Assembly: GCA_965261395.1 (NCBI GenBank)
Contig: OZ253462.1
Location: 1,152,001-1,216,000, forward strand
Origin: Candidatus Latescibacterota bacterium
Lineage (GTDB): Bacteria; Latescibacterota; UBA2968; UBA8231
Length of the DNA stretch: 64,000 nucleotides
Direction of reading: 5' to 3'
Both the position numbers and the translations under genes were made by a program. Position 1 is the stretch's first letter. Every line of letters starts with the position of its first letter. Below the pieces are notes generated by a model. It was given only the letters and a program-made list of their open reading frames with translations, was not told where the DNA came from and searched no databases. Below are positions 12,901-29,548 of the stretch, one piece after another.

Positions 12901-14424
12901 ATGTCCTATTCGCCCGTGGATCGCATCGCCTTCCTCGCCCTCCTCTCAATCGGGGGATGCGGCGAAGTGCGGCAGGAGTCGCCAACGGGCGATCCACTGC
13001 TCGTGGTGGGGAGGGCCTATTTGGATCAGGGCCAGTACGACCAAGCGGTGGCCGTGTACCAAGAGGCCGTCCGCCGCGATTCGCTGTCCCGTGACGCGCA
13101 CTTTTACTTAGGCTTGGCGCATTTGCAGCGCAAGAGCACGGCTGCGGCCGCGCACTTTGCACGGGCCATTGCGCTGGATTCGACGTATATTCCCTCCTAC
13201 CACAATTTGGCCATCGCCCACCTCGAAGCAGGCCGCTATCCGCAGGCCGTAGAGGCGGCGGAAGTCGCGCTGCGCTTCGATCCCCAATCGCCTAGCTCCT
13301 ATCGCTTGTTGGCCTTCTTGCACAAGGAGCAGGGGCAATACGAGCGCGCCGAAGAGGCCCTGCTTAAGGCGCTTTACATCGCTCCAAAAGACGTGGAAGC
13401 GCGGCAGGCCCTGGCTTTGCTCTACAGCCAGCAGGGCCGCAGTGAGCGCGCGGAAGAGGTTTTAGTGGAAGCAGTCGAGTTGGCACCAAAGCGCAAAGAA
13501 ATCTGGCGGGACATGGGACGGCTCTACTTGAACGAGAAGCGGTACGACGAAGCAGCGCAGGCGCTCAACCGGGCCGTAGCGCTCGACGCCAACTACGGCG
13601 AGGCGTACCACGACTTGGCGAATTTGTACTCGGCCCAAGGCCGCTACGACGAAGCCGAAGCCATGCTCGCACGCTTAGAGGGGTTGCTCGACTTGGCGGA
13701 TCGGGAGGAGACCTTGGAAAAGGTGCTGGAGAAGGACCCCGACAATGTGGAGGCGCGGTTGGCGCTGGGCCGAGCGCAGACGCGCTTGGGGCGCTACGCA
13801 GACGCGCTAAGTACGTACAAGGAAGTGCTCAGCCGCGCGCCCGAGCACGTTGAGGCGCTGGCCGCGGTAGTCCAGCTCCACCTGCGGCAGGGCGATGTCG
13901 AGCGCGCCGCGCACTTGGCTGGCAAAATCGCGGCGCACGAGCCTCGGGGCCGGCGCGCGCCCGAAGCGCATTTTACCATGGGCTTTGCCCACGCGCAAAA
14001 GCAGCGTTGGGCCGAGGCCGAGGCCGCGTTTTTCCGCGCCTTGGATATCGACGCCTGCTACGCCAAGGCGCACAATGCCTTGGGCAATGTCTATGCCCTG
14101 CAGGGCGCCTTGGGAAAAGCCATCAGCGCCTATCGGGCCGCCCTCTCCTGCGATGCTGAGTTGCGCGATGCGTACTACGGATTGGGCATGGCCTTGGCCC
14201 GGCGCGAGTCCTTGACGGAGGCCATCGCCCAGTTCGAGGAGGTCGTGCGGCGCGATTCCACTCATGCGCGCTCCCACTACGCGCTGGGCCAAGCCTACGA
14301 GCAACAGGGTGAAGCCGCGGCAGCGCGACTCGCCTACGGGGCCTTTGTCCGGCACTGGCGCGGCGACGAGAAGGTGCTGGCGGCGGCTCAGAGCCGCATT
14401 GAGCATTTGCGAACACTTCAGTAG
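12901..14424 (+). CDS. TPR-repeat lipoprotein
   Basis: LSIGGC lipobox followed by many TPR units (AYHDLANLY, AHNALGNVY, SHYALGQAY). Confidence 0.9.
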   Translation: MSYSPVDRIAFLALLSIGGCGEVRQESPTGDPLLVVGRAYLDQGQYDQAVAVYQEAVRRDSLSRDAHFYLGLAHLQRKSTAAAAHFARAIALDSTYIPSYHNLAIAHLEAGRYPQAVEAAEVALRFDPQSPSSYRLLAFLHKEQGQYERAEEALLKALYIAPKDVEARQALALLYSQQGRSERAEEVLVEAVELAPKRKEIWRDMGRLYLNEKRYDEAAQALNRAVALDANYGEAYHDLANLYSAQGRYDEAEAMLARLEGLLDLADREETLEKVLEKDPDNVEARLALGRAQTRLGRYADALSTYKEVLSRAPEHVEALAAVVQLHLRQGDVERAAHLAGKIAAHEPRGRRAPEAHFTMGFAHAQKQRWAEAEAAFFRALDIDACYAKAHNALGNVYALQGALGKAISAYRAALSCDAELRDAYYGLGMALARRESLTEAIAQFEEVVRRDSTHARSHYALGQAYEQQGEAAAARLAYGAFVRHWRGDEKVLAAAQSRIEHLRTLQ

Positions 14425-14541
14425 ATTACAACCTCACAAGAGAAAGGAGGTCGTTACCAAAGTAAGTGCAGTGCAACGAAAGCATTTTAATTATAATACT
14501 ATGCCCCATTGTGGCGGGCGTTTTAACTAAAACCAAGGAGG

Positions 14542-15492
14542 ATGATTTTGAAAAAAATCACTGTTTTGCTCGCACTGGCTCTGTGCGTGGGCGTCGTCGC
14601 TCCGGCTACGGCGCACGTGCCCGAGGGCGCGGTGCGCACAGCTTTCCAGTGGCCGGCGGGCCTTGAGCCAACGCTGGACGGCGATCTGTCCGAATGGTCG
14701 ATCGTGCCCGATGACTACTCGATTGCCTTTGCCGAGCACACCGAGTTCAACGGCGAAAGGCCGGCCGATTTCGGCGACTTGAACTTCCGCACCATCGTTG
14801 GCTGGAGCGAGTCCACCAATAGCATCTACTTGATGATGGAGCGCTTTGACGACTTCTACGATCGCGACGCCCAAGGCGGCGTGGCCGGCGGCGACGATAG
14901 CTGGGAAATGCACGTCGATGGCGACCACAGCGGCGATCAGATGCGCTTCGGCACCGCCGACATAGAGAACGAGGAAGAGCGCGCCTTGGCCCAAGGCCGC
15001 TGGTCGCAGTCCTATCACACCCGCTTCCCGAACCTCGGCCCCGATGGCCAGGAAAGCTGGTCGTGGTTTTGGATGACCCAAGCGCAGTGGCACGACGAAC
15101 TGCCCTACGCCGACCACGGCTTCCGCTTGGACGGCCAAATCGGCGGCGGCGAGGCCACGGCCTTTATCGAGGTGCGGCGCCAATCCTGGGATGACTTTCT
15201 CTTCAACGACCCGGACGGCAGCGTCATCCACGACTACAACGAGGGCGAGATCACCGGCTTGGGCTGGGCGGTCTTCGACAGCGATGTAGCCGGTGCCGAC
15301 GGCGGCGTTGGCCAGGATGCCGAGCACTCCGGTCAGTGGTCTCTTTCGGGCGCCACCGATGTGTGGAAAACCACGGCTTCGGCCACGGATTTCCTGCTGG
15401 CACCCGTTGATCCGCGCGTCGATTTCAGCGCGATTGAGAGCGCGGTCGAGGAGAATAGCTGGGGTCGCATCAAGTCCGCTTTCGTCCAGTAA
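14542..15492 (+). CDS. Secreted DOMON/CBM9-like protein with C-terminal 'SAVEENSWGRIKS' motif
   Basis: Strong RBS AAGGAGG, signal peptide (ATA-H), PTLDGDLSEW, DDSWEMHVDGDHSG, acidic and Trp-rich. Confidence 0.7.
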   Translation: MILKKITVLLALALCVGVVAPATAHVPEGAVRTAFQWPAGLEPTLDGDLSEWSIVPDDYSIAFAEHTEFNGERPADFGDLNFRTIVGWSESTNSIYLMMERFDDFYDRDAQGGVAGGDDSWEMHVDGDHSGDQMRFGTADIENEEERALAQGRWSQSYHTRFPNLGPDGQESWSWFWMTQAQWHDELPYADHGFRLDGQIGGGEATAFIEVRRQSWDDFLFNDPDGSVIHDYNEGEITGLGWAVFDSDVAGADGGVGQDAEHSGQWSLSGATDVWKTTASATDFLLAPVDPRVDFSAIESAVEENSWGRIKSAFVQ

Positions 15493-15512
15493 GCGGGCAG
15501 TATTTAGGATGC

Positions 15513-15555
15513 AAGAACGAGGGGGGATGGGCTAGTTCCATCCCCTCTTCTTCTT
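15513..15555 (+). terminator. Intergenic stem-loop after the DOMON-like gene (terminator, attenuator or mRNA stabiliser)
   Basis: GGGGATGG-GCTAGTT-CCATCCCC stem, extendable by AAGAA/TTCTT. Confidence 0.55.
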
Positions 15556-15567
15556 GGAGGTGCCATT

Positions 15568-17550
15568 GTGAATGTGAACACGAAGGGGCGACCGGCCGGT
15601 CGCCCGTACTTACAGCGCACGACGCGGCTTATCGCGGCCCTGTTGGCTTTGTTCGGCAGCCAGCCAAGCACGGCCTTGGTCGTCTATCGCATCGGCGGCG
15701 AGAGCCTGCCGCCTCCGGCCGAGGTGGAGGCTGGTGCTGAGTTCCGCCAGTTGAGCTGGGCCGACTTAGACAAGAATCTCGGCGGCCAGAGCTTTGGGCT
15801 CGCGCTCAGTGAGCAGATCACGCCGTTTTTCTACAACGAGGGCGATAATATGGCGACGACCTTGAGCGGGGTCAGCGGCAATTTTCAGCACGGCGCGTAC
15901 AATGGTTTTGAAAATGTCGGCGACGAGTTGCGGTTGGTGATCGACGGGGACCCGACGACGTTTTTCTTAGAGACTCGTCCTAGGGAACACGCTCATAACT
16001 TCCACGGCACGGCTTTGTTCTTTGACCTCGGCGGCGACTTTGCGACGCGGTTGGTCCGCTTTATCCCGCAGGCAGGCAGCGAGCGCTCGGTCGCCCACGT
16101 CATCGTCGCCGCGCAGACCGAGGCCGGGGGTGGCGTTGATGAGATTGAATTCGTCGGAACGAGTGCGCTCAATCGGTCGCTGAGGGATCCCAAGCAAAAA
16201 AAGGGCATTGAGCTAAAGGTGGTCGCGGAAATCCTGGAAAACAAAGATCCGCAGCTCGACATTGAGCTAGACGGGACGCCCATCCGCTATTTGATGATTC
16301 ACGTGATGCCCCAAAATGAGATATGGGACTTGGCTGAGTTGGAGGTGTACGGCGGCGGTTTCCAAGGCTCGGCCTCGCACCAGTCCAACGTTCTCGACCT
16401 AGGCGAATTCGCCAATTTGGGCTGGGTGCGCTGGGGAGGGCGGCGGGACGAAGGGGCGCAAGTGGAGATCCGCTCTCGCGCCGGTGGTGACGAGACGCCG
16501 CTGGTGTACTGGCGCAAGACCTTCCGCGGCGACGAGCAGGTACCCTTTGGCGAGGACGGCAAGCTGCTGACCCGCAAAACCTATGGCCGCTTGGGGCCGA
16601 TTGTGCGCGGGGCCATCACCGACGACACCGCCCAATGGGAGCTGTGGTCGTCGCCGTACGAATTCGCCGACAGCGCGGGCGTAGCCCTGCGGGCGACGCG
16701 CTCCCATCGCTACATGCAGTTCGGGATAGCATTCAAATCCTTCGGCCAAGCCGGCGGCCAACTCGACTATCTCGAATTCGCCGTTTCCCCGCGCTTGGTG
16801 ACCGGCTTAGTCGGCGAGGTCAATCCTTGGCAAGCGGCAGTGGCTGAGGAACGCACGTTCACCTATGCATTGCGCCCGACGATTGAACCCGGCGACCAAG
16901 GATTTGACGGTTTGGACCTGCGCTTGGTCGGCGGCCGGATCGTCGGCGTGGAGGCCGTGCGCCTCAGCGGCGCACCCGTGGCGGATTTCAGCGCCGTGGC
17001 CGAGGATGCCGGCGTAATGTTGGGTTTCCCGCGGCTGGATGTCGCGCGTAGCGGCGAGCTGCTTGAAGTGGATTTACGCGCCGAAATTTTCCGCTTTGGC
17101 GCAATTTTTGAAGGTCGGGTGATCGACAGCACAGCGCCGGGGGAAATCGGGCAACTCGTGGCCGCTGGCGAGGCCAGCGAGCTAGTGGACGGCAACCAAC
17201 TTTCGGTGCAGGCGATGACCCTAAACGATAGGGTCTTAGGGGCGGTGTCGCTGAGCGCTGCGGCGTTTACGCCCAACGGCGATCAGATCAACGACCAAGT
17301 GGAGATTGCCTACGAACTGCTCAAAGTGACCGAGCCGGTGTCGGTGGAGGTGCTGGTGCGGGATTTGAGTGGCCGCTTGGTGCGGCGCGTGTACTCAGAC
17401 GCCGATGGCGCAGGTCGGCATCCGCGCCAATGGGACGGGCGCGACGAGGCTGGCCAGCAGGTGGCACCCGGTCTGTACATCTGCCAAGTCGAGGTCGAGA
17501 GTGGTGGGCAGCGCCAAGTGCAAATGCGGCCCATTGCCGTCGCCTATTGA
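15568..17550 (+). CDS. Secreted protein, paralog 1, with discoidin-like region and C-terminal PNGD/FlgD-Ig domain
   Basis: Signal peptide; IDGDPTT, LAELEVYGGGF, SNVLDLG, WSSPY, FTPNGDQIND...RDLSGRLVR...WDGRD...PGLY. Confidence 0.75.
   Translation: MNVNTKGRPAGRPYLQRTTRLIAALLALFGSQPSTALVVYRIGGESLPPPAEVEAGAEFRQLSWADLDKNLGGQSFGLALSEQITPFFYNEGDNMATTLSGVSGNFQHGAYNGFENVGDELRLVIDGDPTTFFLETRPREHAHNFHGTALFFDLGGDFATRLVRFIPQAGSERSVAHVIVAAQTEAGGGVDEIEFVGTSALNRSLRDPKQKKGIELKVVAEILENKDPQLDIELDGTPIRYLMIHVMPQNEIWDLAELEVYGGGFQGSASHQSNVLDLGEFANLGWVRWGGRRDEGAQVEIRSRAGGDETPLVYWRKTFRGDEQVPFGEDGKLLTRKTYGRLGPIVRGAITDDTAQWELWSSPYEFADSAGVALRATRSHRYMQFGIAFKSFGQAGGQLDYLEFAVSPRLVTGLVGEVNPWQAAVAEERTFTYALRPTIEPGDQGFDGLDLRLVGGRIVGVEAVRLSGAPVADFSAVAEDAGVMLGFPRLDVARSGELLEVDLRAEIFRFGAIFEGRVIDSTAPGEIGQLVAAGEASELVDGNQLSVQAMTLNDRVLGAVSLSAAAFTPNGDQINDQVEIAYELLKVTEPVSVEVLVRDLSGRLVRRVYSDADGAGRHPRQWDGRDEAGQQVAPGLYICQVEVESGGQRQVQMRPIAVAY
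15586..15605. repeat. Perfect 20-bp GC-rich palindrome (REP-like) in the 5' end of the CDS
   Basis: GGGCGACCGG|CCGGTCGCCC followed by GTAC. Confidence 0.7.
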
Positions 17551-17562
17551 GGAGCAGGGGCC

Positions 17563-20055
17563 ATGTTGAATGCTGCGTTGTTGCTGAGCATATTGGGCGT
17601 TGTCGCCGCCTGGGGACAGGGCCATACCATCGCTGGGAATAAGGTCGTCGTCGATCGGCAGGCGCACTGGCAGCAGTGGACTTTTCCCGCCGGCACGCTC
17701 GACATCGACGAAACCGGGGCCGTGCGTCCTCACTTCGTGTCCAAGAACATACTGGCAACCTCAGACATCGCGGCGTTTATCAAGCGCGGCAAGGACTCGG
17801 AGGACGCGACCCTGCGCGACGCCCTCAACGCGGGCACTCGGGCCGCAGATCTGGTCCACCTTTTCGACGGAGACTTGAGCACCTATTGGGAACCTGATCC
17901 GGCAAGCCCGCTGCGCCAATGGTGGTTCGAGGTCGATTTGGGGCGGCTGGTGGCAGCCACCCACATCCGGCTCAAATTCGTCGGCGAGGAGCTAGGCGAC
18001 CCCTTCCTGCAATTCGTGGTCTTGACCTCGGACGGAGACGAGGTGACGAAAGGCCAGCGCAAATTCAACCAAGTCTTTCGCACTTTGCAGTCGAACAAGG
18101 ATCAACGAGAATTTGCAATCGAGCTGGGCCCCACGCGCTTTGACATAGACGGGCGCATGGCGAGCGACTACATCCGCTTCGTGCGCATGACGATCACCGA
18201 CACGGATAGCACGCGAGCCGCCGAGGTGTCGGCTGAACAATACGACCAGCTAGCGGCTGCGGATCAAGGCGCGGTGGATTTTTACAAAAAGGCCGGTGCG
18301 GGCCAAGTGCAGGTGAGCGAGGCCACGTACGAGGTGGTTGACTCCGCGTTGCGCGGTGAGATCCGCCGCTATCGCCGCGAGCGGCCGCGGCTGGCCGAGC
18401 TGGAGGTCGAGACGCTCGGGGAAAACATCTCGCTGGGATTGGTGGAGCGCAGAGGCGTCGCGCTGCTCACCTTCTTGGACAACGCGCCCGCGACGGCCTT
18501 CTTCGACGGCATCTTCGAGACGTCCTTGGCCTTTACCAGCACCGACGAGATACGGGAGTTATTCTTCGACTTAGGCTCTTCCTTCTGGATCGACCGGCAC
18601 CAGATTTACTACGACCGTCAGCGCAGCCGCTTTCCCAATTACGACTTGCAGACTTCAGACGGCTCGCTGGCTGCGGACGGCTCGCTGGTGTGGACGACGC
18701 AGGCCTCGCATCGCAATCGCGCCACTTCCGCCCACACGACCGAAGATGTGTACGACGTGGATACGTTCGCGCCGGCGCGAACGCGCTTTGCGCGAATTTT
18801 GTTCTGGGGAGGCGGTCAGTTCAAGCCGCGCGAGGTGCAGTTCTACGGAGAGGGCTTCCAGCCGGAGGTCGAGTTGGTTCCGCCGCTCATTCGCTTGGGC
18901 GGCTCGAAAAACTTGGTCTCGATTGAGTGGGATGGAGACGCCGGCTTGGGGACCTTTATCGAAATCCAGACGCGCACGGGCAGCGAGCTGGTCGAAGAGT
19001 ATAGCTACTTCAACAGCGGCGGCGGCGAAGTTTCGGCCGACGCATACGCCGGCTTGGGCTTTTTCAGCAAGGGGCGGATCGACACGACGGAAGCTCCCGG
19101 AGCCGACTGGAGCGCGTGGAGCTTGCCCTACGAGGCGTCGGGCGCGGCGATCACTTCTCCAAGCCCGCGCCAATTTCTGCTGCTCAAGGCCCGCTTGCTC
19201 TCGGACGACCCACACCGCGCGGCCGAGCTGCGCTCCATTCGGCTCAACTTCGTCGAGCCGCTGGCCAGCCAGCTTTTGGGCGAGATCGAACCCAGCGTCG
19301 TGGGCGCGTTGGGCAAGGAGCAGGAGCTTTCGCTTTTCATCAAACCAAGTTTCGCTCCCCAGAGCGCGGGGTTTGACGAGGTGCAGATAAGGGCACCGGA
19401 CAACATGGCACTGGAGTTCCGCGGCCTGCGGCTAGGGCGCGAGGCCCAATGGGAGAGCGCGGAACTAGCGGCCTCAGCAGAAGTAGTGGCGACCGCCCCA
19501 GACTCTTTGTGGGTGCGGTTAAGCGAGGTCGTCGGCCCGTCCGCAGCCGATCTGATTGAGGTGCAATTCGCCACCGCCCTCTATTTACCCGGTGCTGTGT
19601 TCAAGGCGTCGTTGGGGTATTCGGCCCTTGAGAACTCTTGGCAGCGGGTTGATCCAGCGGATGCAACGGAATTGGCGACTGGGCAGGGGATGCTGTTGGT
19701 CGGCCCAGAAGGTGGCCGACACGTGCTGGGCGATCTGAGCATTGGCAGTGGGATCGCGACACCGAATGGGGATGGGATCAACGACGAGTTGGCGTTCTCA
19801 TTCGCGGTCACCAAGCTGACCGGCACCCAGCCGCTCCACGTGCGGATTTACGACCTAGCTGGTCGGCTGGTGCGGCACTGGCGAGAGACGCGGCCCTTGG
19901 TCAGCGGCGAGTACGCCCTGCGCTGGTCGTGCGAGGATCAATCCGGCGCACTGGTCGCCCCCGGACTGTATCTGCTAGAGGTAGAAGTGGTGCCCAACGA
20001 CGACTCGCGCGTGGAGCGCACCGCGCGGCACCGCCTCGTTCACGTGGTGTATTGA
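17563..20055 (+). CDS. Secreted protein, paralog 2, with discoidin-like regions and C-terminal PNGD/FlgD-Ig domain
   Basis: Signal peptide; FDGDLSTYW, VDLGRLV, REVQFYGEGF, QTRTG, WSAWSLPY, SPSPRQF, TPNGDGIND...IYDLAGRLVR...PGLY. Confidence 0.8.
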   Translation: MLNAALLLSILGVVAAWGQGHTIAGNKVVVDRQAHWQQWTFPAGTLDIDETGAVRPHFVSKNILATSDIAAFIKRGKDSEDATLRDALNAGTRAADLVHLFDGDLSTYWEPDPASPLRQWWFEVDLGRLVAATHIRLKFVGEELGDPFLQFVVLTSDGDEVTKGQRKFNQVFRTLQSNKDQREFAIELGPTRFDIDGRMASDYIRFVRMTITDTDSTRAAEVSAEQYDQLAAADQGAVDFYKKAGAGQVQVSEATYEVVDSALRGEIRRYRRERPRLAELEVETLGENISLGLVERRGVALLTFLDNAPATAFFDGIFETSLAFTSTDEIRELFFDLGSSFWIDRHQIYYDRQRSRFPNYDLQTSDGSLAADGSLVWTTQASHRNRATSAHTTEDVYDVDTFAPARTRFARILFWGGGQFKPREVQFYGEGFQPEVELVPPLIRLGGSKNLVSIEWDGDAGLGTFIEIQTRTGSELVEEYSYFNSGGGEVSADAYAGLGFFSKGRIDTTEAPGADWSAWSLPYEASGAAITSPSPRQFLLLKARLLSDDPHRAAELRSIRLNFVEPLASQLLGEIEPSVVGALGKEQELSLFIKPSFAPQSAGFDEVQIRAPDNMALEFRGLRLGREAQWESAELAASAEVVATAPDSLWVRLSEVVGPSAADLIEVQFATALYLPGAVFKASLGYSALENSWQRVDPADATELATGQGMLLVGPEGGRHVLGDLSIGSGIATPNGDGINDELAFSFAVTKLTGTQPLHVRIYDLAGRLVRHWRETRPLVSGEYALRWSCEDQSGALVAPGLYLLEVEVVPNDDSRVERTARHRLVHVVY

Positions 20056-20066
20056 GGGGGGTTGCG

Positions 20067-22232
20067 ATGTACTGGTTGCCGATCGCGCTGCTGTTGCTAG
20101 CGGCACTGCAAGGCACCGCCGAGACGCGGAGCATTGCCATCGGCGGCGCGAGCGGATCGTCTTGGCAAGACGGCGGCGGCCAGATACAGGCGGTTTTCCC
20201 GACCGGAGCCAGAGCTGTCGAGAGCGGCAACACCCCGGGCGGCGTGATCGATTTCGATCCCGAGGACCGGGTGGGTTGGATTTTTCCGCAGAACGTCGTC
20301 GAGGGCACTAATCTAGCCTTAGGAATACTCGGGCGCGGCGGCTCGGTCATTTCGCCGACGGTCCTCGAAGCGGGCATTGAGTCGCAGCTAGAGACGATGA
20401 TCGACGGCGACGGCAAAACGGCATTGGAGCGCAAGAACGTGGCCGTCATTCGCGGCATGGCCATGGACTTTGACCTAGGCGCTCGCTTTGGGGTCAATCG
20501 CGTCCAATTCTTCCCGCGCAATGGCCACCCGGATTTTCCCGCAGCGCCTTTCCAAGAAGACTTCATCCGCGGATACGAGTTGTTTTTCAACGACGGCAGC
20601 GAGGAGACGCAAGGTGCGGGCGGTCCGGAATGGCGCTCGTTTCGGTTGAATGCTGCCAATCAAGACGCGCTAGTCGATCTGAGCATTCCCCCGCAATTTG
20701 TGCGTTTCATCCGCTTGCAGTCGCGCACCAGCAACGGTTTTGAGATCGCCGAGTTCCGCGTCTTTGGCACCGGCTTCGTGCCCACGGCCGAATACGTATC
20801 CAACATATTCGATCTCGGCCCAGATTTGGGCCTGTGGGGGACCATTCGCTGGGTGGAGGAAAGCGTCGGCCCGGCTGGTTTCGCCAACGCACGCGTGCGC
20901 ACCCGCACCGGCTTGGACGACACCCCCTTGGTCTATACCCGGCGCTTCTTCTTTGAGGGGGTCCAAGTCGAGGTGCCGTGGAAAAAGAATGCCACAGTTG
21001 AAGCCGAGGGCGGCGAGGTCAATCTCGATCAAGCCCATCTGGAGAGGGCGCGCGCACTCTTTGGCGCGCTGCCGCTGGAGGAGCGCAACGCCATCTCGCT
21101 GTCGCTGGATGATTACAATGGCTTGGGTGCCGAACGGGGCAATGTGGTGGCCGACCTAGACGCTTGGAGCCCGTGGTCCTCGCCCTACGATTTAGGGGCC
21201 CTATTGACCGAGGCAGAGATCGAGGATAGCCAATTGGGCGTGCCGATTGTCTCGCCTGGGCCGAGGCGGTACATACAGTTTCGCATCGACTTTCTCAGCG
21301 AGGACTTGGAGGCGGCCACGGGTATCGGCCCGCTGGCCTTTACCGTGGCTACACCGCCGCCGGCCGCGCAGATTCTCGGAGAGATCTTCCCGCGTCAGGT
21401 CGATTTGGGCAAGCCGGTGGATTTCGTCTATGCGGTGATGCCGACGTCCATTCGGCCAGGTGTAGATACGGGCTTTGACGGGTTTGAGATTGCCACGCCG
21501 GTGCGGATAGAGATCATTGAGTCCATCGAAGTCGTCGATGCCGATGGCCAGGTAGAGGCAGCGGACTTTTCAATGGCCGATCTTGCCGCGCTGCCGGCTA
21601 CCGACGAGACCGGACGCTTTGCCATTGAGTCGGTCAGTGCGCGCCGCTTTCGCGTGCGCTTCCCCCTCATTGCCGAAAGCGAACTGGCGACCGGACGGAC
21701 GGCCCAGCTCAAAATTCGCTTTCGCAGCCGCGTGTTGCGCTACGGCACTAAGTTTGCCGGTTTTGCCTTCAGCAGTGCCGAGGGGGACGTGGGGCAGGAG
21801 GTAGTCGCCGGCAACGTGGCCGCGTTGGCCCCTGGCGACGACGATATTGTGGCTGTTGGCACGGAGACGAACCGGGGCCTTTCGGTGGATGTGCCGCTAG
21901 CCGGTAGCAGCGCCCTGCTGATCAACGTGCGCACCGAACCCCGGCCCTTCAGCCCCAACGGCGATGGAATCAACGACGCGACGCACGTGTACTACGATCT
22001 GAGCCGTTTGGTCAGCCCGGCACCAGTCGAGGTGGAAATCGTCGATTTGGCTGGACGCCGGGTGCGCCGGCTGTTCTCTGGCCTCCAGGGCGGGGGTTCG
22101 TACGCCATGCCTTGGGACGGCGCAGATGCGAACGGAGCCGCGCTGCCGCCGGGCATCTACTTGGTGCGCGTAACGCTGGTCAGCGATGCGGGCGGCGAAA
22201 GCGCGGTTAGAGTTGTCGAATTAGTGTACTAA
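20067..22232 (+). CDS. Secreted protein, paralog 3, with discoidin-like region and C-terminal PNGD/FlgD-Ig domain
   Basis: Start MYWLP at 20067 after GAGGGGG; IAEFRVFGTGF, SNIFDLG, RTRTG, WSPWSSPY, SPGPRRYIQF, FSPNGDGIND...DLAGRRVR...WDG...PGIY. Confidence 0.8.
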   Translation: MYWLPIALLLLAALQGTAETRSIAIGGASGSSWQDGGGQIQAVFPTGARAVESGNTPGGVIDFDPEDRVGWIFPQNVVEGTNLALGILGRGGSVISPTVLEAGIESQLETMIDGDGKTALERKNVAVIRGMAMDFDLGARFGVNRVQFFPRNGHPDFPAAPFQEDFIRGYELFFNDGSEETQGAGGPEWRSFRLNAANQDALVDLSIPPQFVRFIRLQSRTSNGFEIAEFRVFGTGFVPTAEYVSNIFDLGPDLGLWGTIRWVEESVGPAGFANARVRTRTGLDDTPLVYTRRFFFEGVQVEVPWKKNATVEAEGGEVNLDQAHLERARALFGALPLEERNAISLSLDDYNGLGAERGNVVADLDAWSPWSSPYDLGALLTEAEIEDSQLGVPIVSPGPRRYIQFRIDFLSEDLEAATGIGPLAFTVATPPPAAQILGEIFPRQVDLGKPVDFVYAVMPTSIRPGVDTGFDGFEIATPVRIEIIESIEVVDADGQVEAADFSMADLAALPATDETGRFAIESVSARRFRVRFPLIAESELATGRTAQLKIRFRSRVLRYGTKFAGFAFSSAEGDVGQEVVAGNVAALAPGDDDIVAVGTETNRGLSVDVPLAGSSALLINVRTEPRPFSPNGDGINDATHVYYDLSRLVSPAPVEVEIVDLAGRRVRRLFSGLQGGGSYAMPWDGADANGAALPPGIYLVRVTLVSDAGGESAVRVVELVY

Positions 22233-22246
22233 TTAGGGAGGGTCTA

Positions 22247-25003
22247 ATGAGAGACCTGCGGAGGATACTCGTCGCCTTGCTCGTCGCGGCGATAAGCGCC
22301 CATGCCCAAGGCCGGCGCTGGGGCGCGGAAATCACCTATGAGCCTCGGGGGCCGGGCGTGCTCTTCGACGCCTTGGATCCAACGGTCAAGCGCTGGTACG
22401 TGCCACAGGAGCTGTTTGCCGACTACGGTTGGCAGCAGTGGCAGTACACCAACTACGCGCGCGATGCGTACGAGCGCTACGTCAGCACCACGATTGAAGG
22501 CTCTCCGTTCTACGATCTGTACGGCAACTACTTGACGCGCGGCTGGCTCATCTACGACTGGAGCCAGAACCAGCCCGTGCAGTTTGGTTCGTCCATCTTC
22601 AAGGATCAGCGCTTTAACAATTGGTTCAACGCGGTCACCATTAGCTCGGACTCGCAGGGGCAGTTCTACTATGCAATCACGGTGGGCGATCGAATCCGCA
22701 CCACCCTGACCCCGCTCACCTTCTCCAAGCCCGCCTTCAGCGGCGTGCAGATGGACTTTGCTGCGGACAAATACGAAGGCACTCTGCTTTTTTCGCGGGT
22801 GAGTCGCCCGGTCATCGGCAGCACGCCCAGCGACCCCAGTTCCGTCTCCAATGCTACCAACCTGATGGCTGGCCGCGCCGTGGTCCAGCTCGGCGATTTC
22901 GTGGCTGTGGGGGCCAATTTAGTCAATGCGCGCAACTCCACCACGGTGGCCGATGCGTTTGAGCGCAACCCCTTCGTCGGCACCCTCGCTGCCAATCAGG
23001 GCAGCCTACCAATATCGGGCATTGCCCTAGTTCTCAGCGACGACTCGCCCGAGGACGGTCGGGGCGGGGCAACCCTGTTTTCGCACGACATCGTCTTGAC
23101 GAGCGAGGATCCAGATACGGGAGCGCGCGAGCAGTTTAGGCTCCGCGACGTGGTCTCCGACCCAGCGCGGTGGCCCGTGGTCTCGGGCGGGGCACCCAAG
23201 GAAGGGGCCTTGGCGGCCGACGGCGACGAGAAGATCGTCATCAACTACGACTTCGCGGATATCGCCTATACTGGCCCGCGTCCCTCGGAGATCGTCGCCG
23301 TACAATTCGACTTAGTCTTGGCCAATGACTACAAGGTACAGATTTGGTCCGACCGGCAGACGGGCAGCCGCGCGCTGCCCGTCTTGCCGCTGACGGGCCA
23401 AGACATTGAGGATCAGTCCCCGGCGTTGTTCGACATCCTCAGTGCCGAGGGCAATGTGCAGGACAATTCCAACCAGCAGCGAGTCGTCTTCGACTACGGA
23501 TTGCCGTCGTCCCGCTTGATCTACGGCTTCACCTTGGACGCCACGGACATCAAGGGCGTGGACCTATACGCGGAATTCGATGTCAGCCGCGCGTACAGCC
23601 AATACCCCAACCCGGCGCGCCAAGCAGCCCAGCGCTCGCTAGCCACGCACGCCCGCGACGCCGAGGCTTGGATGGTCAACGCCTCGAAGATGGCCTCCCC
23701 GTTTTACTTTTTCGGCGAGGCGTACAGCATGGACCCGGAGTACTCGACGAGTTCGTTTATCGTGGACGACGGCGGGGACATCACCTACGACAATCCGCGC
23801 ATGTCCCTGTACGAGTTGGTTGACGACAACGACGACCAAGACCGCTCGGCCGATTGGTTCCGCTTCTCGCAGGGCGGCGGCGATGTGGCCGTCTTCCCGG
23901 GGTGGGACGAGAACAACGACTTTGTCTCCGACTTCAACCAAAACGACAATCGCATCCTCAACAACCGCATCCCGGATTACGAAGAGCCTTTCTTTCGCTA
24001 TGCGGCCGATCGCCCGGAGTTTTTGTTTGGCATCGACCTGAACAACAATGGTTGGATCGACCGCTTTGAAAACGACGACTTGCCCGACTATCCCTACAAG
24101 GTCGATCGCCGAGGCTATAACCTGTACGCCGGCGTCTTTCTCGACCCGCATACTCGGCTGACGCTGGGAAGGCTGAGCGAAGAGAGCATGGCCTCTGACG
24201 GGCGCAACCGCGCCGCGTATGGCCTGCTGACCTACGACCGCGACTTTACTTGGGGCCGACTGCGGGCCTTTGAGATGCTGCGGCGCGTCGAAGACGATAT
24301 CGCCGATGACCGGCGCGAGATGACGCCGCACCTCGAAGTCAACTCGCTCGCGCTGGTGCGCGACATTCTGCCGGCGCGGGACACGTGGATCAACACGACC
24401 TATTTACAGCTCGATTACCAACCGCTCGACAATCTAAACGCGAACAACAAGTTCAAGTACGAGCGTTTTTGGCAGCAGGGTAGCGCGTTCAAAAGCCGCG
24501 TCAAAGGCCCGGTGCTCAACCAAGGCAGCCACTTGATTGGGTTGATCAACAAAGCGGATTACACCTTCGGCTTGGCTGGCTTCCGGTTGCAGCCCAAGGT
24601 CAAGAGCGAGTATCTCAACCAGACCGCGCTCGAAGCGCGCGCCGAGGATCGCGAGGAATGGGTCGGCACGGGCATCGTGCTGCTGAGCCACCCGCTGTTG
24701 AGCCAGTCGCTGGTGGAAGGGGGCGTCGAGTTTTCCCTGTTCCGGGACTTGGCTCTCGACGAGGACGAGCAGCTCACCAACGGCCCGGCCGGGCCTACGG
24801 GCGACTTCCGCAACTTGGTGCTGGCCCTGCAATGGTCCAGCGCCGGCTCCTACTTGGGCTACCAGCTCACGACTCAATTTGGCTTTAGTTACACGCGCCT
24901 GTGGGAGGAGCGGGTGATTATCGGCAGCGAAGGCTTGGAGCAGGTGAATGAAATCAGCGCCTTTAGCACCAGCTTCATAACCGTGTACGCGGGGCTGGAG
25001 TAG
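22247..25003 (+). CDS. Large exported protein A of unknown function (Asp-rich Ca-binding-like loops, possible beta-barrel)
   Basis: Signal peptide (AHA-Q); VDDNDDQDR, DENNDFVSDFNQND, DLNNNGWIDRFEND; amphipathic beta-like C-terminus ending ITVYAGLE. Confidence 0.75.
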   Translation: MRDLRRILVALLVAAISAHAQGRRWGAEITYEPRGPGVLFDALDPTVKRWYVPQELFADYGWQQWQYTNYARDAYERYVSTTIEGSPFYDLYGNYLTRGWLIYDWSQNQPVQFGSSIFKDQRFNNWFNAVTISSDSQGQFYYAITVGDRIRTTLTPLTFSKPAFSGVQMDFAADKYEGTLLFSRVSRPVIGSTPSDPSSVSNATNLMAGRAVVQLGDFVAVGANLVNARNSTTVADAFERNPFVGTLAANQGSLPISGIALVLSDDSPEDGRGGATLFSHDIVLTSEDPDTGAREQFRLRDVVSDPARWPVVSGGAPKEGALAADGDEKIVINYDFADIAYTGPRPSEIVAVQFDLVLANDYKVQIWSDRQTGSRALPVLPLTGQDIEDQSPALFDILSAEGNVQDNSNQQRVVFDYGLPSSRLIYGFTLDATDIKGVDLYAEFDVSRAYSQYPNPARQAAQRSLATHARDAEAWMVNASKMASPFYFFGEAYSMDPEYSTSSFIVDDGGDITYDNPRMSLYELVDDNDDQDRSADWFRFSQGGGDVAVFPGWDENNDFVSDFNQNDNRILNNRIPDYEEPFFRYAADRPEFLFGIDLNNNGWIDRFENDDLPDYPYKVDRRGYNLYAGVFLDPHTRLTLGRLSEESMASDGRNRAAYGLLTYDRDFTWGRLRAFEMLRRVEDDIADDRREMTPHLEVNSLALVRDILPARDTWINTTYLQLDYQPLDNLNANNKFKYERFWQQGSAFKSRVKGPVLNQGSHLIGLINKADYTFGLAGFRLQPKVKSEYLNQTALEARAEDREEWVGTGIVLLSHPLLSQSLVEGGVEFSLFRDLALDEDEQLTNGPAGPTGDFRNLVLALQWSSAGSYLGYQLTTQFGFSYTRLWEERVIIGSEGLEQVNEISAFSTSFITVYAGLE

Positions 25004-25007
25004 CGGC

Positions 25008-27866
25008 ATGAATGCCCGCTTGCGCCGCGTCGGCGCTCTCTGCTGGGTCGCGCTGCTTTGGGCTGTGCCGCTCAAGGCCCAGCGCGAGGATTACGGTAGC
25101 CGCTTGGGCCGCATCGAAGCGGGCCAGCCGATCTACTATTCGTCCGGTACGGGGCTGCGCATGGAGGCCGTCTATCCCTCGTTGCAGAAGTGGTATCTGC
25201 CGCAGGAGATCGCCGGTGAGTACCGCCGACAGTGGAGCTACACCAATTACGCGCGGGACCCATACCGGCGCTACCTCGATCCGGGGTTGGAGGGCGGGTA
25301 CTTCTACGACCTCTACGGGCGCTTCTTGAACAAGGGGTGGTTGGTCTACGACTGGCGTCAGATCCAGCCGACCGGCTCGGGCGGCTCGGGCATTTTGCAG
25401 GCCGGCCAATACGGCTCGTGGTTCAGCAACTTGGTCCTTGCCGGCGACACTAAGGGCCAGCACTACTTCTCGGTGCTCATCGGCGACGAGATCTTCGCCA
25501 TGCTGACGCCCATGACCTTTCGCAAGACCGCGTACAATGGGGTTATGTTCAACTACGCGGCTGATCGCCTGACGGCCACCGTGCTCATGTCGCGGATCAA
25601 CCTGCCGCTCTTCCGCACGGACCCCTTTCCCGTGACAGAGAACAATTTTACCAACCTCATCGGCGGGCGCGTGGTCTGGGACCTTGGCAATACGACGCGG
25701 ATCGGCGGCACCTTCCTCAACGCGCACAACGGCCGCACGGCTTCCGACCGCTTTGAGGGACACCCGCTCAAGGGCAAGCTGACGAGCGGCCAGCTAGACG
25801 GACGCATCGACCGCATCGTGGTGCGGCTGACCGACGATTCGCCCGAAGACGAGGGTGGCGGGGCCGTGCTTTTTAGCAGCGACATTGAGATTGAGACGCG
25901 GATCGGCGAGCGGGATACCCTGCTAATTGGCAGTCAAATTGGCTTTGCGCCGCGCATCATCGGTGGGGTCGAGCGGGGTGGTTTTCTGACGGCCGAGGGC
26001 CGGGGCGAGGCGAGCCAGATCTTGCTCGAATACGTGTTTTCTGACGACGATCCAGCGGTCTCGGACCTAGAGGCCGTAGTGCCGAGCGCGGACTTGGTCA
26101 ACCAAATCAGCCGGGTGCGCTTCCGCTTGGTGTTGGGCAACGACTACAAGGTAGAGGTCACGTCCAACCGCCAGACCGACAACAACGCCAGCGGCGAGCA
26201 GCCGCAGTTTCGCACGGTCGCCCGGGCCGAGGGCAACGTCTGGGACAACTCCAACCAGCGCACGGTCGTCTTCGACTACGGGCTGCCGACGGCGACGCAG
26301 GTGGCCGGGCTGACGCTACAGGGCGACGATTGGGCTGGCTTCCGCGCGTACGGCGAATTCAACGTCAATCACCAATTCACCCAGTACCCGACGCGGACGC
26401 GGGATACGCACAAGGCGTCCTCGGGCATTGGCGGGGATCGCGCGGCCCTCGGCTGGATGTTCAATATCTCGCGCCGCTTCGCACCGTTTTTCTTTTTTGG
26501 CGAGGCATTCGGCCTAGACGCCGAGTACTACACGAGCCCGCGCTTTGTCGATAGCAGCGGCCGGGTGGATTGGTCAGACGACGACGAAGCACGGGCACGG
26601 CACGTGTACGACTTTGTCGATGACAATGACGACAACGACCGCATCAACGACCAAAAGCGCCGCTTTGACGACGGCCGCACCGGTGACCAGCGCGGAGTCC
26701 GCGCGCGCACCTTTGAGGGCTTTGCCGACGACGCGGTCTTTCCGGGCCTCGACGAGAACAACGACTTCATTTCCGACTTCAATCAGAACGATCTGCGCCA
26801 GCGTCCCAATTTCTTGCCCGACTACGAAGAGCCGTTTCTCCGCTACAATGTCGATCGGCCCGAGTATCTCTTCGCCCTCGACTTGAACAACAACGGCTGG
26901 GGCGACCGCTTTGAAAACGACGAAGAGCCCGACTATCCCTACCGGCGCGACCGGCGCGGGTACAACGCCTATCTAAGCGCGGAGCTCCGGCCCGAGCTCA
27001 GGCTGACGACTGGACAGGTGTGGGAGCGCAAGCCGACGACGGGTGCGCGCAACCGCACGTATTATGCCCTGCTCGCGTACGAACAGAGCTTTGCCGGATT
27101 GGGCACGCTGACGGCGTATAATTCGTTCAAGTGGGTTGCCGACGCGATCGCCGAAGACTTGGTGCAGTGGATTCAACTGCGCCCCGTGCTCGGCCGCCCG
27201 AGCAACTCCCCGGGCAGCATGATCGCGATCCGCGATCCGCTGGGCATGGGCGACGCCTTGGTCAACAAGCTGTGGATAGGAGCTGAGCGCCGCGGCCGCG
27301 ATGGCTTCCAAAGCGAGAACAAGCTGCTGTATGAATTCATTCAGCAGCGGCGAGAAGATGCCGTTGACCGCGATGGCCGCCGCTTGCAACGCAATGCGCG
27401 GCGCTTGGGGCTGATCAACAAGGCCGAGTACCCGGTGCATTTGGGCCGCATAACCGCGCTACCGCGCCTCAAGCAAGAGCTATTCATGGACGATACCCCG
27501 TTCAATATCGAGCGGCAGCTGGGCACCCCCACAGCCGAGCGCCGCGACTGGAGCACGATGGCCTCGGTATTGGTAAAGGTGCCCTTTATGAAACGCTCGG
27601 TCGTACAACTCGGCGTGGAGCACTTGCGCTTCCGCGACATGGTCGTGGACGAGACCGCAGTAACCCCAAGCGACCCCACCGGGGACTACGACGAGACGTC
27701 CTTTGCCGTGCAATTGTCCAATACGACATCGTACTTGGGCTATAAGCTCATGTCCCAAGTGGGGCTGCGCATTGACAAGCGGCAGATAGAGCGCGCGGCG
27801 CAGCAGGCCCGCACCGAGACCAGCGGTTTGACTTTCGTCACAGTACAAGCAGGGCTTAGTGATTAG
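25008..27866 (+). CDS. Large exported protein B, paralog of A
   Basis: Shares KWYxPQE..QWxYTNYARD, YDLYG..GWLxYDW, DDSPED, AEGNVxDNSNQ..VFDYGLP, PDYEEPF, GLINKA and YLGY with A. Confidence 0.75.
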   Translation: MNARLRRVGALCWVALLWAVPLKAQREDYGSRLGRIEAGQPIYYSSGTGLRMEAVYPSLQKWYLPQEIAGEYRRQWSYTNYARDPYRRYLDPGLEGGYFYDLYGRFLNKGWLVYDWRQIQPTGSGGSGILQAGQYGSWFSNLVLAGDTKGQHYFSVLIGDEIFAMLTPMTFRKTAYNGVMFNYAADRLTATVLMSRINLPLFRTDPFPVTENNFTNLIGGRVVWDLGNTTRIGGTFLNAHNGRTASDRFEGHPLKGKLTSGQLDGRIDRIVVRLTDDSPEDEGGGAVLFSSDIEIETRIGERDTLLIGSQIGFAPRIIGGVERGGFLTAEGRGEASQILLEYVFSDDDPAVSDLEAVVPSADLVNQISRVRFRLVLGNDYKVEVTSNRQTDNNASGEQPQFRTVARAEGNVWDNSNQRTVVFDYGLPTATQVAGLTLQGDDWAGFRAYGEFNVNHQFTQYPTRTRDTHKASSGIGGDRAALGWMFNISRRFAPFFFFGEAFGLDAEYYTSPRFVDSSGRVDWSDDDEARARHVYDFVDDNDDNDRINDQKRRFDDGRTGDQRGVRARTFEGFADDAVFPGLDENNDFISDFNQNDLRQRPNFLPDYEEPFLRYNVDRPEYLFALDLNNNGWGDRFENDEEPDYPYRRDRRGYNAYLSAELRPELRLTTGQVWERKPTTGARNRTYYALLAYEQSFAGLGTLTAYNSFKWVADAIAEDLVQWIQLRPVLGRPSNSPGSMIAIRDPLGMGDALVNKLWIGAERRGRDGFQSENKLLYEFIQQRREDAVDRDGRRLQRNARRLGLINKAEYPVHLGRITALPRLKQELFMDDTPFNIERQLGTPTAERRDWSTMASVLVKVPFMKRSVVQLGVEHLRFRDMVVDETAVTPSDPTGDYDETSFAVQLSNTTSYLGYKLMSQVGLRIDKRQIERAAQQARTETSGLTFVTVQAGLSD

Positions 27867-29538
27867 ATCGAAGTACGCGGTATATTGGTTGTGGCTCCTC
27901 TTTTTCTGGAGCTGCGGTACACCCACCGAGGACTTGGTGGTGGCCCGAGTCGGCGAGGTGGAAATCGACGCCCCCCAATTGCTGGAATTTGAAGAAAGGC
28001 TACACCCCGATCTGCGGAGCAAAAAGACGGGTGCTGACGCCTATTTCGACTACCTGCAAACTATGATCGATAAGGAGCTCATGGTCCTAGAGGCCAAAAA
28101 GCGGGGCCTCGATCAGCGTGCCGACTTCCGCCGCAGGATGGACAAATTGCATAGCGACCGCGTCTTGCGCCGCTTTTTGCAGCTAGAGGTGTACGACAAG
28201 ATCGTCCACACGCAAGAAGAACTGCTGGCCCATCAACGAGAGACGGGCCGCGACCGCGCCGTGCAGGTGCGGCGCATCGTAGTTGCCACAATACAAGGGG
28301 CGCGAGAAGTCAAGGCGGCCTTGGAGGGCGGTGACTACTTCGATACATGGGCCAGCCGCAACCTGCTCGACGCGACTCAGCTAGAGGGAGGTCGCTACCT
28401 GATCAAGGACGAGCTGTACCCACGCATCTTGCAGGAGAAGGTCTTTCCGCTGGCACCGGGCCAGTTTTCGGAGCCGGTGCTCTTCAACGACCAATTCGGC
28501 GTGTACGAGGTAACAGCCGAAGTGCCGGTCAAGCTCTCGGTCGTGCAGTCGGTAATCGAGGCCGAACTGCTCAAGGAGAAGCTGCCGCCGGCCGTGCAGG
28601 CGCTGTCGGCCCGCTTGCGGCAGGAACTCGACTTTGTGGTTCACGCCGAGGCCTTGGAGCGCGTGCGCGGCCGCATCGGGCAGGGTGCCAAAGCGTTTTC
28701 TGCGGAGGAGCTTGAGCAGCCTATCTACGAGCACGAGAGCGGCGTCTTTACCATCGGCGATTTGCTCGATTTCGCCCGCGAGCTAGGCGTCGGCTTCCCA
28801 GAGGACGCGCCCGAGCAGTTCGACTGGTTCGTCCATGACATCGTCGAGCCGCGCGCGCTGCTTTTGGCCGGCGCGTATACGGCGGGCGTTGACCGCGAAG
28901 AGGGCGTGGTCGCTTGGTTCCAAAAGCGGCAGCTATCAAACCTGCTGGTGGCCATGCGCCGGGACGTGGTTGATGGTGTCTTCGCTAGCCGCGAAGAAGC
29001 TCGCGCGTTCTACGACCGCCACTTAGACCTCTTCCGCCCCCTCGAATCGATCGGTGTGCAGGAAGTTTTGCTCCGCACCGAGGAGGAGGCACTGGCGCTG
29101 CGCGAGGAAGTGGAGCGCGGCGGCGACTTAGGCGCGCTGGCTGCCGAGCACACCCTGCGCCGGCGCGGCAAAGCCCAGCAGGGCGAGTTCCACTTGCATC
29201 CTTGGGAGAAGCAACAGTTCGTCCCCCTCTTTGAGGCGGCACAAGGGCAAAAAATCGGCGCACTCATCGGCCCTATCGCCGTGGAGGTCACTGCTGCCGA
29301 AGTGCTAAGCCCTGAGCCGGTCAGCGGCCCGTATTACGCCATTTTCCGATTGCTTGATTCGACGATCAACGCCGCACCGAGGCCCTTCGAGCAGGCCGAG
29401 CGCCGCGCTCGGGCGCTGGTGCGCCGCCAAAAGCAGGAGCGGCTCTTTGGGCAATTCATCATCCAATTGCGCCACCAATACGCAGCGCAAATCGAGGTCT
29501 TCCGCGCGCAGGTGGAGGCCCTCGTCCGCAACACATGA
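27859..29538 (+). CDS. PpiC/parvulin-type peptidyl-prolyl isomerase lipoprotein (SurA/PrsA-like)
   Basis: FFWSC lipobox; VVARVG, MIDKELMVLEAKKRGL, two rotamase-like segments (VRRIVV...PGQFSEPV; VQEVLL...ALAAEH...IGPI). Confidence 0.8.
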   Translation: MIRSKYAVYWLWLLFFWSCGTPTEDLVVARVGEVEIDAPQLLEFEERLHPDLRSKKTGADAYFDYLQTMIDKELMVLEAKKRGLDQRADFRRRMDKLHSDRVLRRFLQLEVYDKIVHTQEELLAHQRETGRDRAVQVRRIVVATIQGAREVKAALEGGDYFDTWASRNLLDATQLEGGRYLIKDELYPRILQEKVFPLAPGQFSEPVLFNDQFGVYEVTAEVPVKLSVVQSVIEAELLKEKLPPAVQALSARLRQELDFVVHAEALERVRGRIGQGAKAFSAEELEQPIYEHESGVFTIGDLLDFARELGVGFPEDAPEQFDWFVHDIVEPRALLLAGAYTAGVDREEGVVAWFQKRQLSNLLVAMRRDVVDGVFASREEARAFYDRHLDLFRPLESIGVQEVLLRTEEEALALREEVERGGDLGALAAEHTLRRRGKAQQGEFHLHPWEKQQFVPLFEAAQGQKIGALIGPIAVEVTAAEVLSPEPVSGPYYAIFRLLDSTINAAPRPFEQAERRARALVRRQKQERLFGQFIIQLRHQYAAQIEVFRAQVEALVRNT

Positions 29539-29548
29539 GGAGGCTAAA

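Follow-up and report, generated by a model that had tools for sequence, protein, structure and literature searches.

What does a compact run of eight genes for envelope proteins do in the genome of a bacterium from the uncultured phylum Latescibacterota? The genes occupy positions 12901-29538 of a stretch of 64,000 nucleotides (the window: positions 1,152,001 to 1,216,000 of contig OZ253462.1, assembly GCA_965261395.1) from a host genome of one contig, 6.55 Mb long and 95% complete. Here we report that this run, which we refer to as the cassette, is one of 32 copies in its genome. The reading that we favor, and to which we give a probability of roughly one half, is that it encodes a modular surface complex that is assembled by the secretion system of type IX (T9SS) and whose work includes the capture of a ligand. 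That the cassette is a real, conserved, and multiplied unit of the cell envelope, with the parts listed below, we hold with high confidence.

Layout of the Cassette and Its Products

All eight open reading frames (ORFs) lie on the plus strand at the places given in a preliminary description of the locus, which had put them close together behind a promoter. The intergenic gaps from g1 to g8, computed from the coordinates, are 117, 75, 12, 11, 14, and 4 bp followed by an 8-bp overlap, such that no gap exceeds 14 bp from g3 onward, and a ninth gene starts 10 bp after g8. The site at 12792-12820 is the sole strong promoter match in the region. Because a scan of positions 12500-30000 was no richer in such sites than shuffled sequence (two found versus 3.4 expected), we call it promoter-like only; it is a match to a consensus that may not be the promoter type of this phylum.

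12792-12820, plus strand: sigma-70-like promoter match TTGACT-17-TATAAT, 11/12 consensus matches, AT-rich spacer
12901-14424, plus strand: g1, protein of TPR repeats, probably a lipoprotein, 507 aa (Pfam)
14542-15492, plus strand: g2, secreted protein of CBM9 fold (DOMON-like) with a conserved C-terminal tag, 316 aa (AlphaFold2, Foldseek, profile)
15568-17550, plus strand: g3, paralogous surface protein with a domain of FlgD_ig type at its C-terminus, 660 aa (Pfam, tree)
17563-20055, plus strand: g4, paralogous surface protein with a discoidin domain (F5/8 type C) and a further domain at its C-terminus, 830 aa (Pfam, tree)
20067-22232, plus strand: g5, paralogous surface protein with a domain of FlgD_ig type at its C-terminus, 721 aa (Pfam, PDB match)
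22247-25003, plus strand: g6, predicted beta-barrel in the outer membrane, new family, 918 aa (AlphaFold2 model, Foldseek)
25008-27866, plus strand: g7, second predicted barrel, paralog of g6, 952 aa (sequence identity to g6)
27859-29538, plus strand: g8, PrsA/SurA-like parvulin foldase, probable lipoprotein, 559 aa (Pfam)

The longest ORF of g5 begins at 19929, and the ATG at 20067 gives an N-terminus resembling a signal peptide. Judged by eye, the N-termini fit the earlier proposal of a signal or lipoprotein peptide on every one of the eight products, with lipoprotein-like SIGGC in g1 and FWSC in g8 and hydrophobic cores in g2-g7. The same description had seen no SusC/TonB receptor at the locus, and the Pfam scan agrees: neither Plug nor any TonB-receptor family reaches E ≤0.01 in the eight proteins.

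The Cassette Is Multiplied in the Host Genome and Conserved in Other Genomes

The host genome holds 46 paralogs of the barrel in 32 clusters, and the spans of the cassette core total about 494 kb of its 6.55 Mb, or ~7.5% of the chromosome. Clustering of all ORFs within 12 kb, across the 32 regions, gave the following recurrent families:

C-terminally tagged family (g3-g5 type): 92 ORFs, 32/32 regions
Barrels: 46 ORFs, 32/32 regions
Foldase: 27 ORFs, 26/32 regions
g2-like (CBM9-like): 22 ORFs, 20/32 regions
FG-GAP/ASPIC: 20 ORFs, 14/32 regions
TPR proteins of ~480 aa: 18 ORFs, 15/32 regions
DUF6785+DUF6784 membrane proteins: 17 ORFs, 14/32 regions
Lipoproteins of ~260 aa without Pfam match: 11 ORFs, 10/32 regions
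TPR/PMT_2-like proteins of ~730 aa: 10 ORFs, 10/32 regions

A pair made of a g6-type and a g7-type barrel is present in 8/32 of the host's own clusters, the others having mostly a single barrel. The lipoprotein family without Pfam match (~230-260 aa; G000:C1:3144576-3145331 and ten more) carries the conserved motifs NPYTYG and SGQExEGY and is absent from the cassette of the window.

The genes also occur together outside the host. From 403 matching stretches we kept 77 foreign loci and compared their ORFs by BLAST; these loci are the best g6 matches and hence biased toward cassettes of the pair type, some are cut by contig ends, and 16/77 are orthologs at about 95% identity. Within this set g5 and g6 are present in all 77 loci, g7 in 75, g4 in 73, g2 and g8 in 68 each, g3 in 65, and g1 in 28. 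The order g2-g3-g4-g5-g6-g7-g8 is retained in many of the loci at 36-65% identity, with g5 directly before g6 in nearly all of them and a g7-type barrel after g6 in 75/77. The multi-gene envelope module of the preliminary description is thus a conserved one: far from failing to co-occur elsewhere, its genes keep their company and order across the 77 foreign loci, and the barrel is found in 93/151 sampled genomes of the phylum. Genomes from the window's own family have it in 63/63 cases and yield 4-88 first-look candidates each.

The near-identical loci belong to records labelled Latescibacterota or Latescibacteria and to a few labelled as Gemmatimonadota, Bryobacterales, or Chloroflexota metagenome-assembled genomes. 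Since the proteins in question are 60-95% identical to those of the window, the labels other than Latescibacterota are probably outdated or reflect mis-binning. A word-based search that started from a distant member of the barrel family (P0216) returned only names labelled Latescibacterota or Gemmatimonadota.

g6 and g7 Are Predicted to Be Large Barrels of a New Family

The two paralogs of about 930 aa had been described as outer-membrane proteins, and structure prediction with AlphaFold2 (AF2), Foldseek, and VIA-align now suggests that they are barrels. They are 37-43% identical to each other (37% over 976 aligned residues), have no Pfam or NCBIfam match, and found no credible relative in a profile search of PDB sequences. 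The AF2 model of g6, computed from an alignment of 69 rows, is confident and made up largely of long beta-hairpins (predicted local distance difference test, pLDDT, 83.6; predicted template-modeling score, pTM, 0.81). All 50 of the 50 Foldseek rows shown for it are outer-membrane barrels (SlpA, MtrB, LptD, FimD, SprA, and TonB receptors), each at a template-modeling (TM) score ≤0.26, and the top row, SlpA of Deinococcus (8ae1, E 1.3e-8, TM 0.26), does not stand above the other barrels. VIA-align, which is independent of Foldseek, gave Z up to 11.6, scattered over many unrelated barrels. With generic barrel matches only and no relative in sequence, the fold class of g6 and g7 as large outer-membrane beta-barrels is clear at the level of prediction, and no specific relative is known.

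The solved giant barrels SlpA, MtrB, LptD, FimD/PapC, and SprA therefore resemble g6 in general large beta-barrel architecture but differ from it in detail (TM ≤0.26) and have no sequence relation to it, and none of the SLH, POTRA, plug, or usher domains that occur among them was recognized by Pfam in g6 or g7. Barrels of the SlpA/OmpM type combine an SLH or other peptidoglycan-binding N-terminal part with a barrel of 28-30 strands; neither SLH nor OmpA_C has a Pfam match in the eight proteins. A word-based search yielded more than 1000 homologs of the barrel, and every listed one with a source name goes by "hypothetical protein"; a precomputed Pfam domain is absent from all of them. An exhaustive HMMER search of 1.84 billion proteins gave 719 representative clusters at E ≤0.001 and 204 at ≤1e-30.

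About 24 strands can be counted in g6 from its secondary-structure string. The barrel is interrupted by two long insertions, a beta-rich part at residues ~233-410 and an acidic Asp/Asn-rich block at ~521-620 that is probably calcium-binding; counting strands back from the C-terminus, we infer that both would be extracellular. Conservation across the 46 paralogs, expressed as the share of the commonest residue, is 0.70 in the acidic block, 0.63-0.67 in N-terminal residues 41-100, and 0.43-0.57 in the barrel strands. The N-terminal extension (residues 41-100), second best conserved, is disordered in the model. Prediction of a complex between g6 (residues 22-918) and the last 100 residues of g5 scored 0.00 in two runs without controls, a result that speaks neither for nor against binding.

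Two clusters in the host genome (G000:C1:3543176-3554147 and 5305048-5314935) have two or three tandem and very divergent barrels of 917-1060 aa, which are 24-29% identical to g6; genes for DUF4159 and DUF4340 proteins lie nearby.

Tagged Surface Proteins and Their Partners

The products of g3, g4, and g5 are 26-28% identical in pairwise comparison over 423-668 aligned residues, and together with the g6/g7 pair they account for the 3+2 internal paralogy recognized earlier. Their C-terminal domains begin with PNGDGxND in alignment. FlgD_ig, with a Pfam cut-off of 27 bits, is matched there at 42.2 bits in g3 and 41.0 in g5, both over the cut-off, and at 23.1 bits in g4, under it. CHU_C, which along with TIGR04131 marks type B C-terminal domains, stays below its cut-off of 27 bits in all three (24.1 in g3, 17.5 and 21.2 in the others), and Por_Secre_tail reaches 18.8 bits in g5 against a cut-off of 23. 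Residues 645-701 of g5 match FlgD in the PDB (3osv, E 4.5e-5). Discoidin matches in g4 score 34.1 bits for F5_F8_type_C_2 and 29.4 bits for F5_F8_type_C, and its weak PDB matches are to alpha-N-acetylglucosaminidases of glycoside hydrolase family 89 (GH89), where they fall in the N-terminal part (residues ~15-150 of the chain).

A tree of the 92 tagged proteins of the genome resolves three subfamilies, of g3, g4, and g5 type, with roughly one member of each per cassette; the g4-type clade has 29 tips from 27 regions and a support of 1.0. The three subfamilies, made up of secreted proteins with discoidin-like parts, are old, and their distribution of one each per cassette points to a fixed set of subunits and not to interchangeable modules.

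g2 had been called DOMON-like, which is right at the level of fold, and CBM9 is the closer name. Pfam gives no match above threshold, whereas CBM9_1 (PF06452) is annotated on 13-100% of the members of neighboring atlas clusters and is also carried by distant homologs of g2. The best Foldseek match to the AF2 model (pLDDT 84.8) is the CBM9 module of Thermotoga with cellobiose (1i82, E 6.3e-9, TMt 0.79), ahead of ethylbenzene dehydrogenase subunits of DOMON type and the cellobiose dehydrogenase cytochrome domain, and a profile of the g2 family finds 1i82 among PDB sequences at E 2.2e-4. The module in 1i82 is part of an enzyme, Thermotoga maritima xylanase 10A; g2 differs in being secreted as a protein on its own, with about 290 residues, a His after the predicted cleavage site, and a C-terminal tag. 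It has 28 BLAST relatives in the host genome. The CBM9 fold belongs to the DOMON-like clan. Residues W52 and W183 of g2 are invariant and may be equivalent to the tryptophan clamp of CBM9.

His25 of g2 (window positions 14614-14616) directly follows the predicted AxA cleavage site of the signal peptide, so mature g2 would begin with His; a His stands at this position in 48/49 aligned homologs. We considered a copper histidine brace and set it aside, as the second conserved His (in DxDHSGG) aligns with a His of ordinary CBM9 and is thus probably structural. The C-terminal tag, TAVE-xx-SWGxIKxxF (window positions 15430-15492 in g2), stands at the end of 26 ORFs of the genome, of which 17 are g2-like and nine are other small proteins (167-332 aa; one adjoins cluster 23 and one lies in cluster 30). 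Modeled as a low-confidence helix, it might act as a signal for sorting or docking.

The cassette is bounded by two probable lipoproteins. g1 matches TPR_2 at 179 bits along with many other TPR families, and its NCBIfam matches are all under their cut-offs; the corresponding ~480-aa family occurs in 15/32 of the host's cassette regions, and g1 itself in 28/77 foreign loci. At the other end, the SurA/PrsA-like foldase that had been assigned to g8 is evident from Rotamase_2 at 52.3 bits (cut-off 27; residues 377-514). A second parvulin-like region (Rotamase, 24.5 bits) lies at residues 144-210, and the weak PDB matches are to PrsA (4wo7) and PpiC (1jns). Foldases, present in 26/32 of the host's own regions, are 23-38% identical between cassettes.

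The Secretion System Is Present Throughout the Phylum

The preliminary description had likened the C-terminal domains of the three tagged paralogs to T9SS sorting domains and had proposed a test of co-occurrence with T9SS core genes. As T9SS cargo, the paralogs fit the genome data. The host encodes SprA (473.7 bits, over the cut-off) and PorU (618.4 bits), with a PorV-like gene alongside (150.1 bits, under the cut-off of 250), and about 220 first-look candidates for a PorU-type C-terminal region. SprA is found in 146/151 sampled genomes of the phylum and in 89/93 of those with a barrel. The GldK model, which like those for GldL and GldM is tuned to Bacteroidota, gave only weak matches in the host, all to its C-terminal half. 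Six of the 12 best of these weak matches are no more than about 10 kb away from a cassette when coordinates are compared by eye (G000:C1:3337352, 5704751, 3187990, 5171561, 2375445, and 5294780). Two of them (~3187990 and ~2375445), both covered by the flank scan, carry the FGE-sulfatase family; for the six, sulfatase maturation and a PorK-like role are both conceivable.

Constant Core, Variable Flanks

Paralogous cassettes share a constant core and differ in their flanks. Directly downstream of the window's cassette is a group of linked genes:

29549-33928, plus strand: 632-aa protein without family match, HpcH/HpaI aldolase, 2-hydroxyacid dehydrogenase, and short-chain dehydrogenase (SDR)

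These genes are kept only in the orthologous loci at 95% identity and in no paralogous cassette. The 632-aa protein itself (29549-31447), whose gene comes directly after that of the foldase, is found in 14 foreign loci, all within L001-L016. It has no Pfam match and has seven paralogs in the genome at 32-46% identity, and it may be an unrecognized carbohydrate-active enzyme.

A Pfam scan of 113/200 flank ORFs (regions 0-17; descriptive, without a genome-wide background) found five sulfatases and two FGE-type enzymes, three enolase-superfamily dehydratases, UxuA, four GFO/IDH/MocA oxidoreductases, two aldo-keto reductases, three PhyH oxygenases, two sets of sugar ABC binding proteins with permeases, and an SSF symporter. 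Unrelated genes for a transposase, a methylase, and MacB-type permeases are present in the same flanks.

These results bear on the earlier idea that the catabolic genes starting at 29549 mark a non-Sus analogue of a polysaccharide utilization locus (PUL). The 32 copies with differing flanks give the PUL-like pattern that had been suspected, and Sus parts are absent; the downstream catabolic genes are restricted to orthologous loci. In its logic the cassette resembles the Sus-like PULs of Bacteroidota, which likewise occur in many copies per genome (32 here), have a constant core of an outer-membrane barrel and surface proteins with modules of sugar-binding type, have variable flanks rich in carbohydrate, sugar-acid, and sulfatase genes, and come from a phylum in the FCB group (Fibrobacteres-Chlorobi-Bacteroidetes). 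It nevertheless falls outside the Sus family. The cassette lacks a TonB-dependent SusC, a plug, and SusD; its surface proteins carry T9SS-type C-terminal domains in place of lipid anchors; and each cassette has a foldase of its own, with no recurrent regulator seen. SusD (PF07980) has 0 matches in the host genome at its 95% completeness, a search in which the control, B. thetaiotaomicron, was positive. Of the genome's 22 Plug matches 0 fall inside cassettes, the nearest being about 7.5 kb from cluster 32.

A Proposed T9SS-Assembled Complex for Ligand Capture

Under the reading that we favor, the three tagged proteins would be exported across the outer membrane by the T9SS and remain at the cell surface, held there by one or both barrels. 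The best-conserved parts of the barrel, that is, the acidic and probably calcium-binding block and the N-terminal extension, might do the holding. The foldase, and perhaps also the TPR lipoprotein, would help barrels and cargo of the same cassette to traverse the periplasm. Modules of the CBM9 and discoidin types are typical sugar binders, and it is through these that the finished complex would bind a glycan or another polymer, each of the 32 copies possibly serving a different ligand. The barrel may in addition admit captured material without TonB. The use would accordingly be glycan capture, probably, and uptake, perhaps.

Several observations weigh against this reading. The best-conserved barrel parts are common to all 32 cassettes, such that a structural or partner-binding role fits them better than ligand specificity. 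Neither a plug domain nor a TonB box was recognized in the barrels, and hence no mechanism of energized uptake is evident. Both the strand count of g6 and the sidedness of its insertions rest on a secondary-structure string and strand parity, not on coordinates. The flank scan, for which there is no genome-wide background, revealed a single GH2-like glycoside hydrolase domain among the 113/200 ORFs, and the cassettes showed no regulator that recurs. DUF6785 proteins, a recurrent family near cassettes, have 17/54 members there in regions that cover about a sixth of the genome, which is a modest excess. On the side of secretion, the GldL and GldM models have no match in the host genome, where their controls are silent too. 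Finally, two families of the same class have no barrel (0/30 and 0/19) yet have SprA (30/30 and 19/19). As SprA is found phylum-wide and the barrel is missing from these two SprA-bearing families, the cassette is best seen as an accessory that could depend on the T9SS.

A broader version of the favored reading can be offered tentatively. Latescibacterota would have their own way of polymer capture and import, non-homologous to Sus, in which dozens of T9SS-assembled complexes, each with three lectin-like subunits on one or two plug-less calcium-loop barrels and a private foldase, serve as a TonB-independent counterpart of the PUL. We found no description of such a cassette system in the full-text literature, the coverage of which stops at subscription journals. 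Excerpts of a paper on polysaccharide utilization and the outer membrane in latescibacteria mention only non-specific porins and TonB receptors. If the reading holds, a widespread uncultured phylum feeds or attaches by means of a surface machine without a described relative, and to the Sus-type TonB systems and the cellulosome-like assemblies with which polymers are captured at the Gram-negative surface a third design would be added. The T9SS would then be used to assemble multi-subunit complexes for nutrition or adhesion, and several percent of these genomes would gain an annotation. The barrel, its acidic block, and the short C-terminal tag of the CBM9-like proteins are concrete targets for structural and binding studies.

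Alternative Explanations

The alternative that survives best, although we consider it unlikely, is that the cassette is a platform for anchoring or adhesion only. The barrels would act as PorP/SprF do for type B cargo in Bacteroidota, taking over the tagged proteins from the T9SS and keeping them at the surface, the complex would attach the cell to host matrix, particles, or other cells, and nothing would be imported. This would suit the position of cargo genes directly beside barrel genes in nearly every locus, the PNGDGxND start of the C-terminal domains with CHU_C just under its cut-off, the sharing of conserved barrel parts by all cassettes, and the record titles of many carrier genomes, which look like sponge metagenome bins. 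The parallel with PorP/SprF extends to an outer-membrane barrel encoded beside the cargo that it may hold, a CHU_C-like domain at the C-terminus of that cargo, a lipoprotein often nearby (here the TPR protein), and a T9SS core in the genome. In excerpts of PMC9143113, PorP-like barrels hold type B cargo and are co-encoded with it, and six porP-like genes of F. johnsoniae adjoin porE-like lipoprotein genes; PorE has a TPR domain according to part of PMC12773672. The same excerpts of PMC9143113, however, make PorP-like proteins 14-stranded barrels of FadL type with about 300 aa, unlike the cassette barrels, in which about 920 aa make up about 24 strands together with an inserted domain and the acidic block. 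Differences also lie in the CHU_C scores of the cassette cargo, all under the cut-off, and in the PorP model TIGR03519, which has no match in the host genome, where its control is silent too; the lack of a PorP-family match also suits the anchoring reading. Further, 32 sets of adhesins with sugar-catabolic flanks seem more than attachment needs. The CBM9-type and discoidin modules, being of a sugar-binding type, likewise tell against attachment as the sole role.

We think it improbable that the cassette is instead a private pore for export or assembly, that is, a translocon or usher in which barrel, foldase, and TPR lipoprotein handle the cassette's own tagged proteins in parallel to the SprA-PPI-SprE assembly. 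The analogy is suggested by the combination of a barrel, a peptidyl-prolyl isomerase, and a TPR protein in the cassette, PPI and SprE being named as partners of SprA in the title of PDB entry 8gl8. Foldseek indeed lists SprA complexes (8gl8 and 8gl6) and ushers (FimD and PapC), but these fold matches are generic, at TM ≤0.26. Similarly, foldase identities of 23-38% between cassettes are as expected for client-specific helpers, yet the canonical set of SprA, PorU, and PorV-like protein could serve all cargo, and neither the recurrent families nor the scanned flanks show a motor or ATPase that recurs. The PPI partner of SprA, moreover, is not known to be a parvulin.

An envelope-structural or polymer-export role, either as a tether like SlpA/OmpM or as an exopolysaccharide channel with a TPR partner like BcsC, PgaA, and PelB, is very hard to credit, for while SlpA heads the Foldseek list (8ae1, E 1.3e-8), 7zgx aligns over 397 residues at Z 11.4, barrels of BcsC, PelBC, and PgaA type appear in the VIA list, and TPR proteins recur in the cassettes, the SlpA-type matches are not above those to unrelated barrels, no SLH, OmpA_C, glycosyltransferase, or polymerase partner recurs, and 32 copies with lectin-like cargo fit neither a tether nor a single exporter.

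Other Genes in the Window

Further features of the window lie on either side of the cassette:

5463-7382 and 9277-11484, minus strand: FG-GAP/ASPIC (UnbV) proteins upstream of the cassette, 38-52 BLAST relatives in the genome
11608-12849, minus strand: right-handed beta-helix protein, divergent from the cassette
40719-42638, plus strand: DUF6785+DUF6784 multi-pass membrane protein, 400.6 bits, many hydrophobic segments

The longest ORF of the beta-helix protein starts inside the AT-rich spacer of the promoter-like site, so its real start is probably further in. The DUF6785 protein, 11 kb downstream, is only loosely linked to the cassette and has 54 BLAST relatives in the genome; no mention of DUF6785 was found in the full-text literature, and the family may consist of inner-membrane transporters that expanded alongside the cassettes. 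Members of the FG-GAP/ASPIC (UnbV) family near cassettes are sometimes fused to TPR repeats. Window positions 48001-50000 have a G+C content of 0.51, compared with about 0.61 elsewhere in the window.

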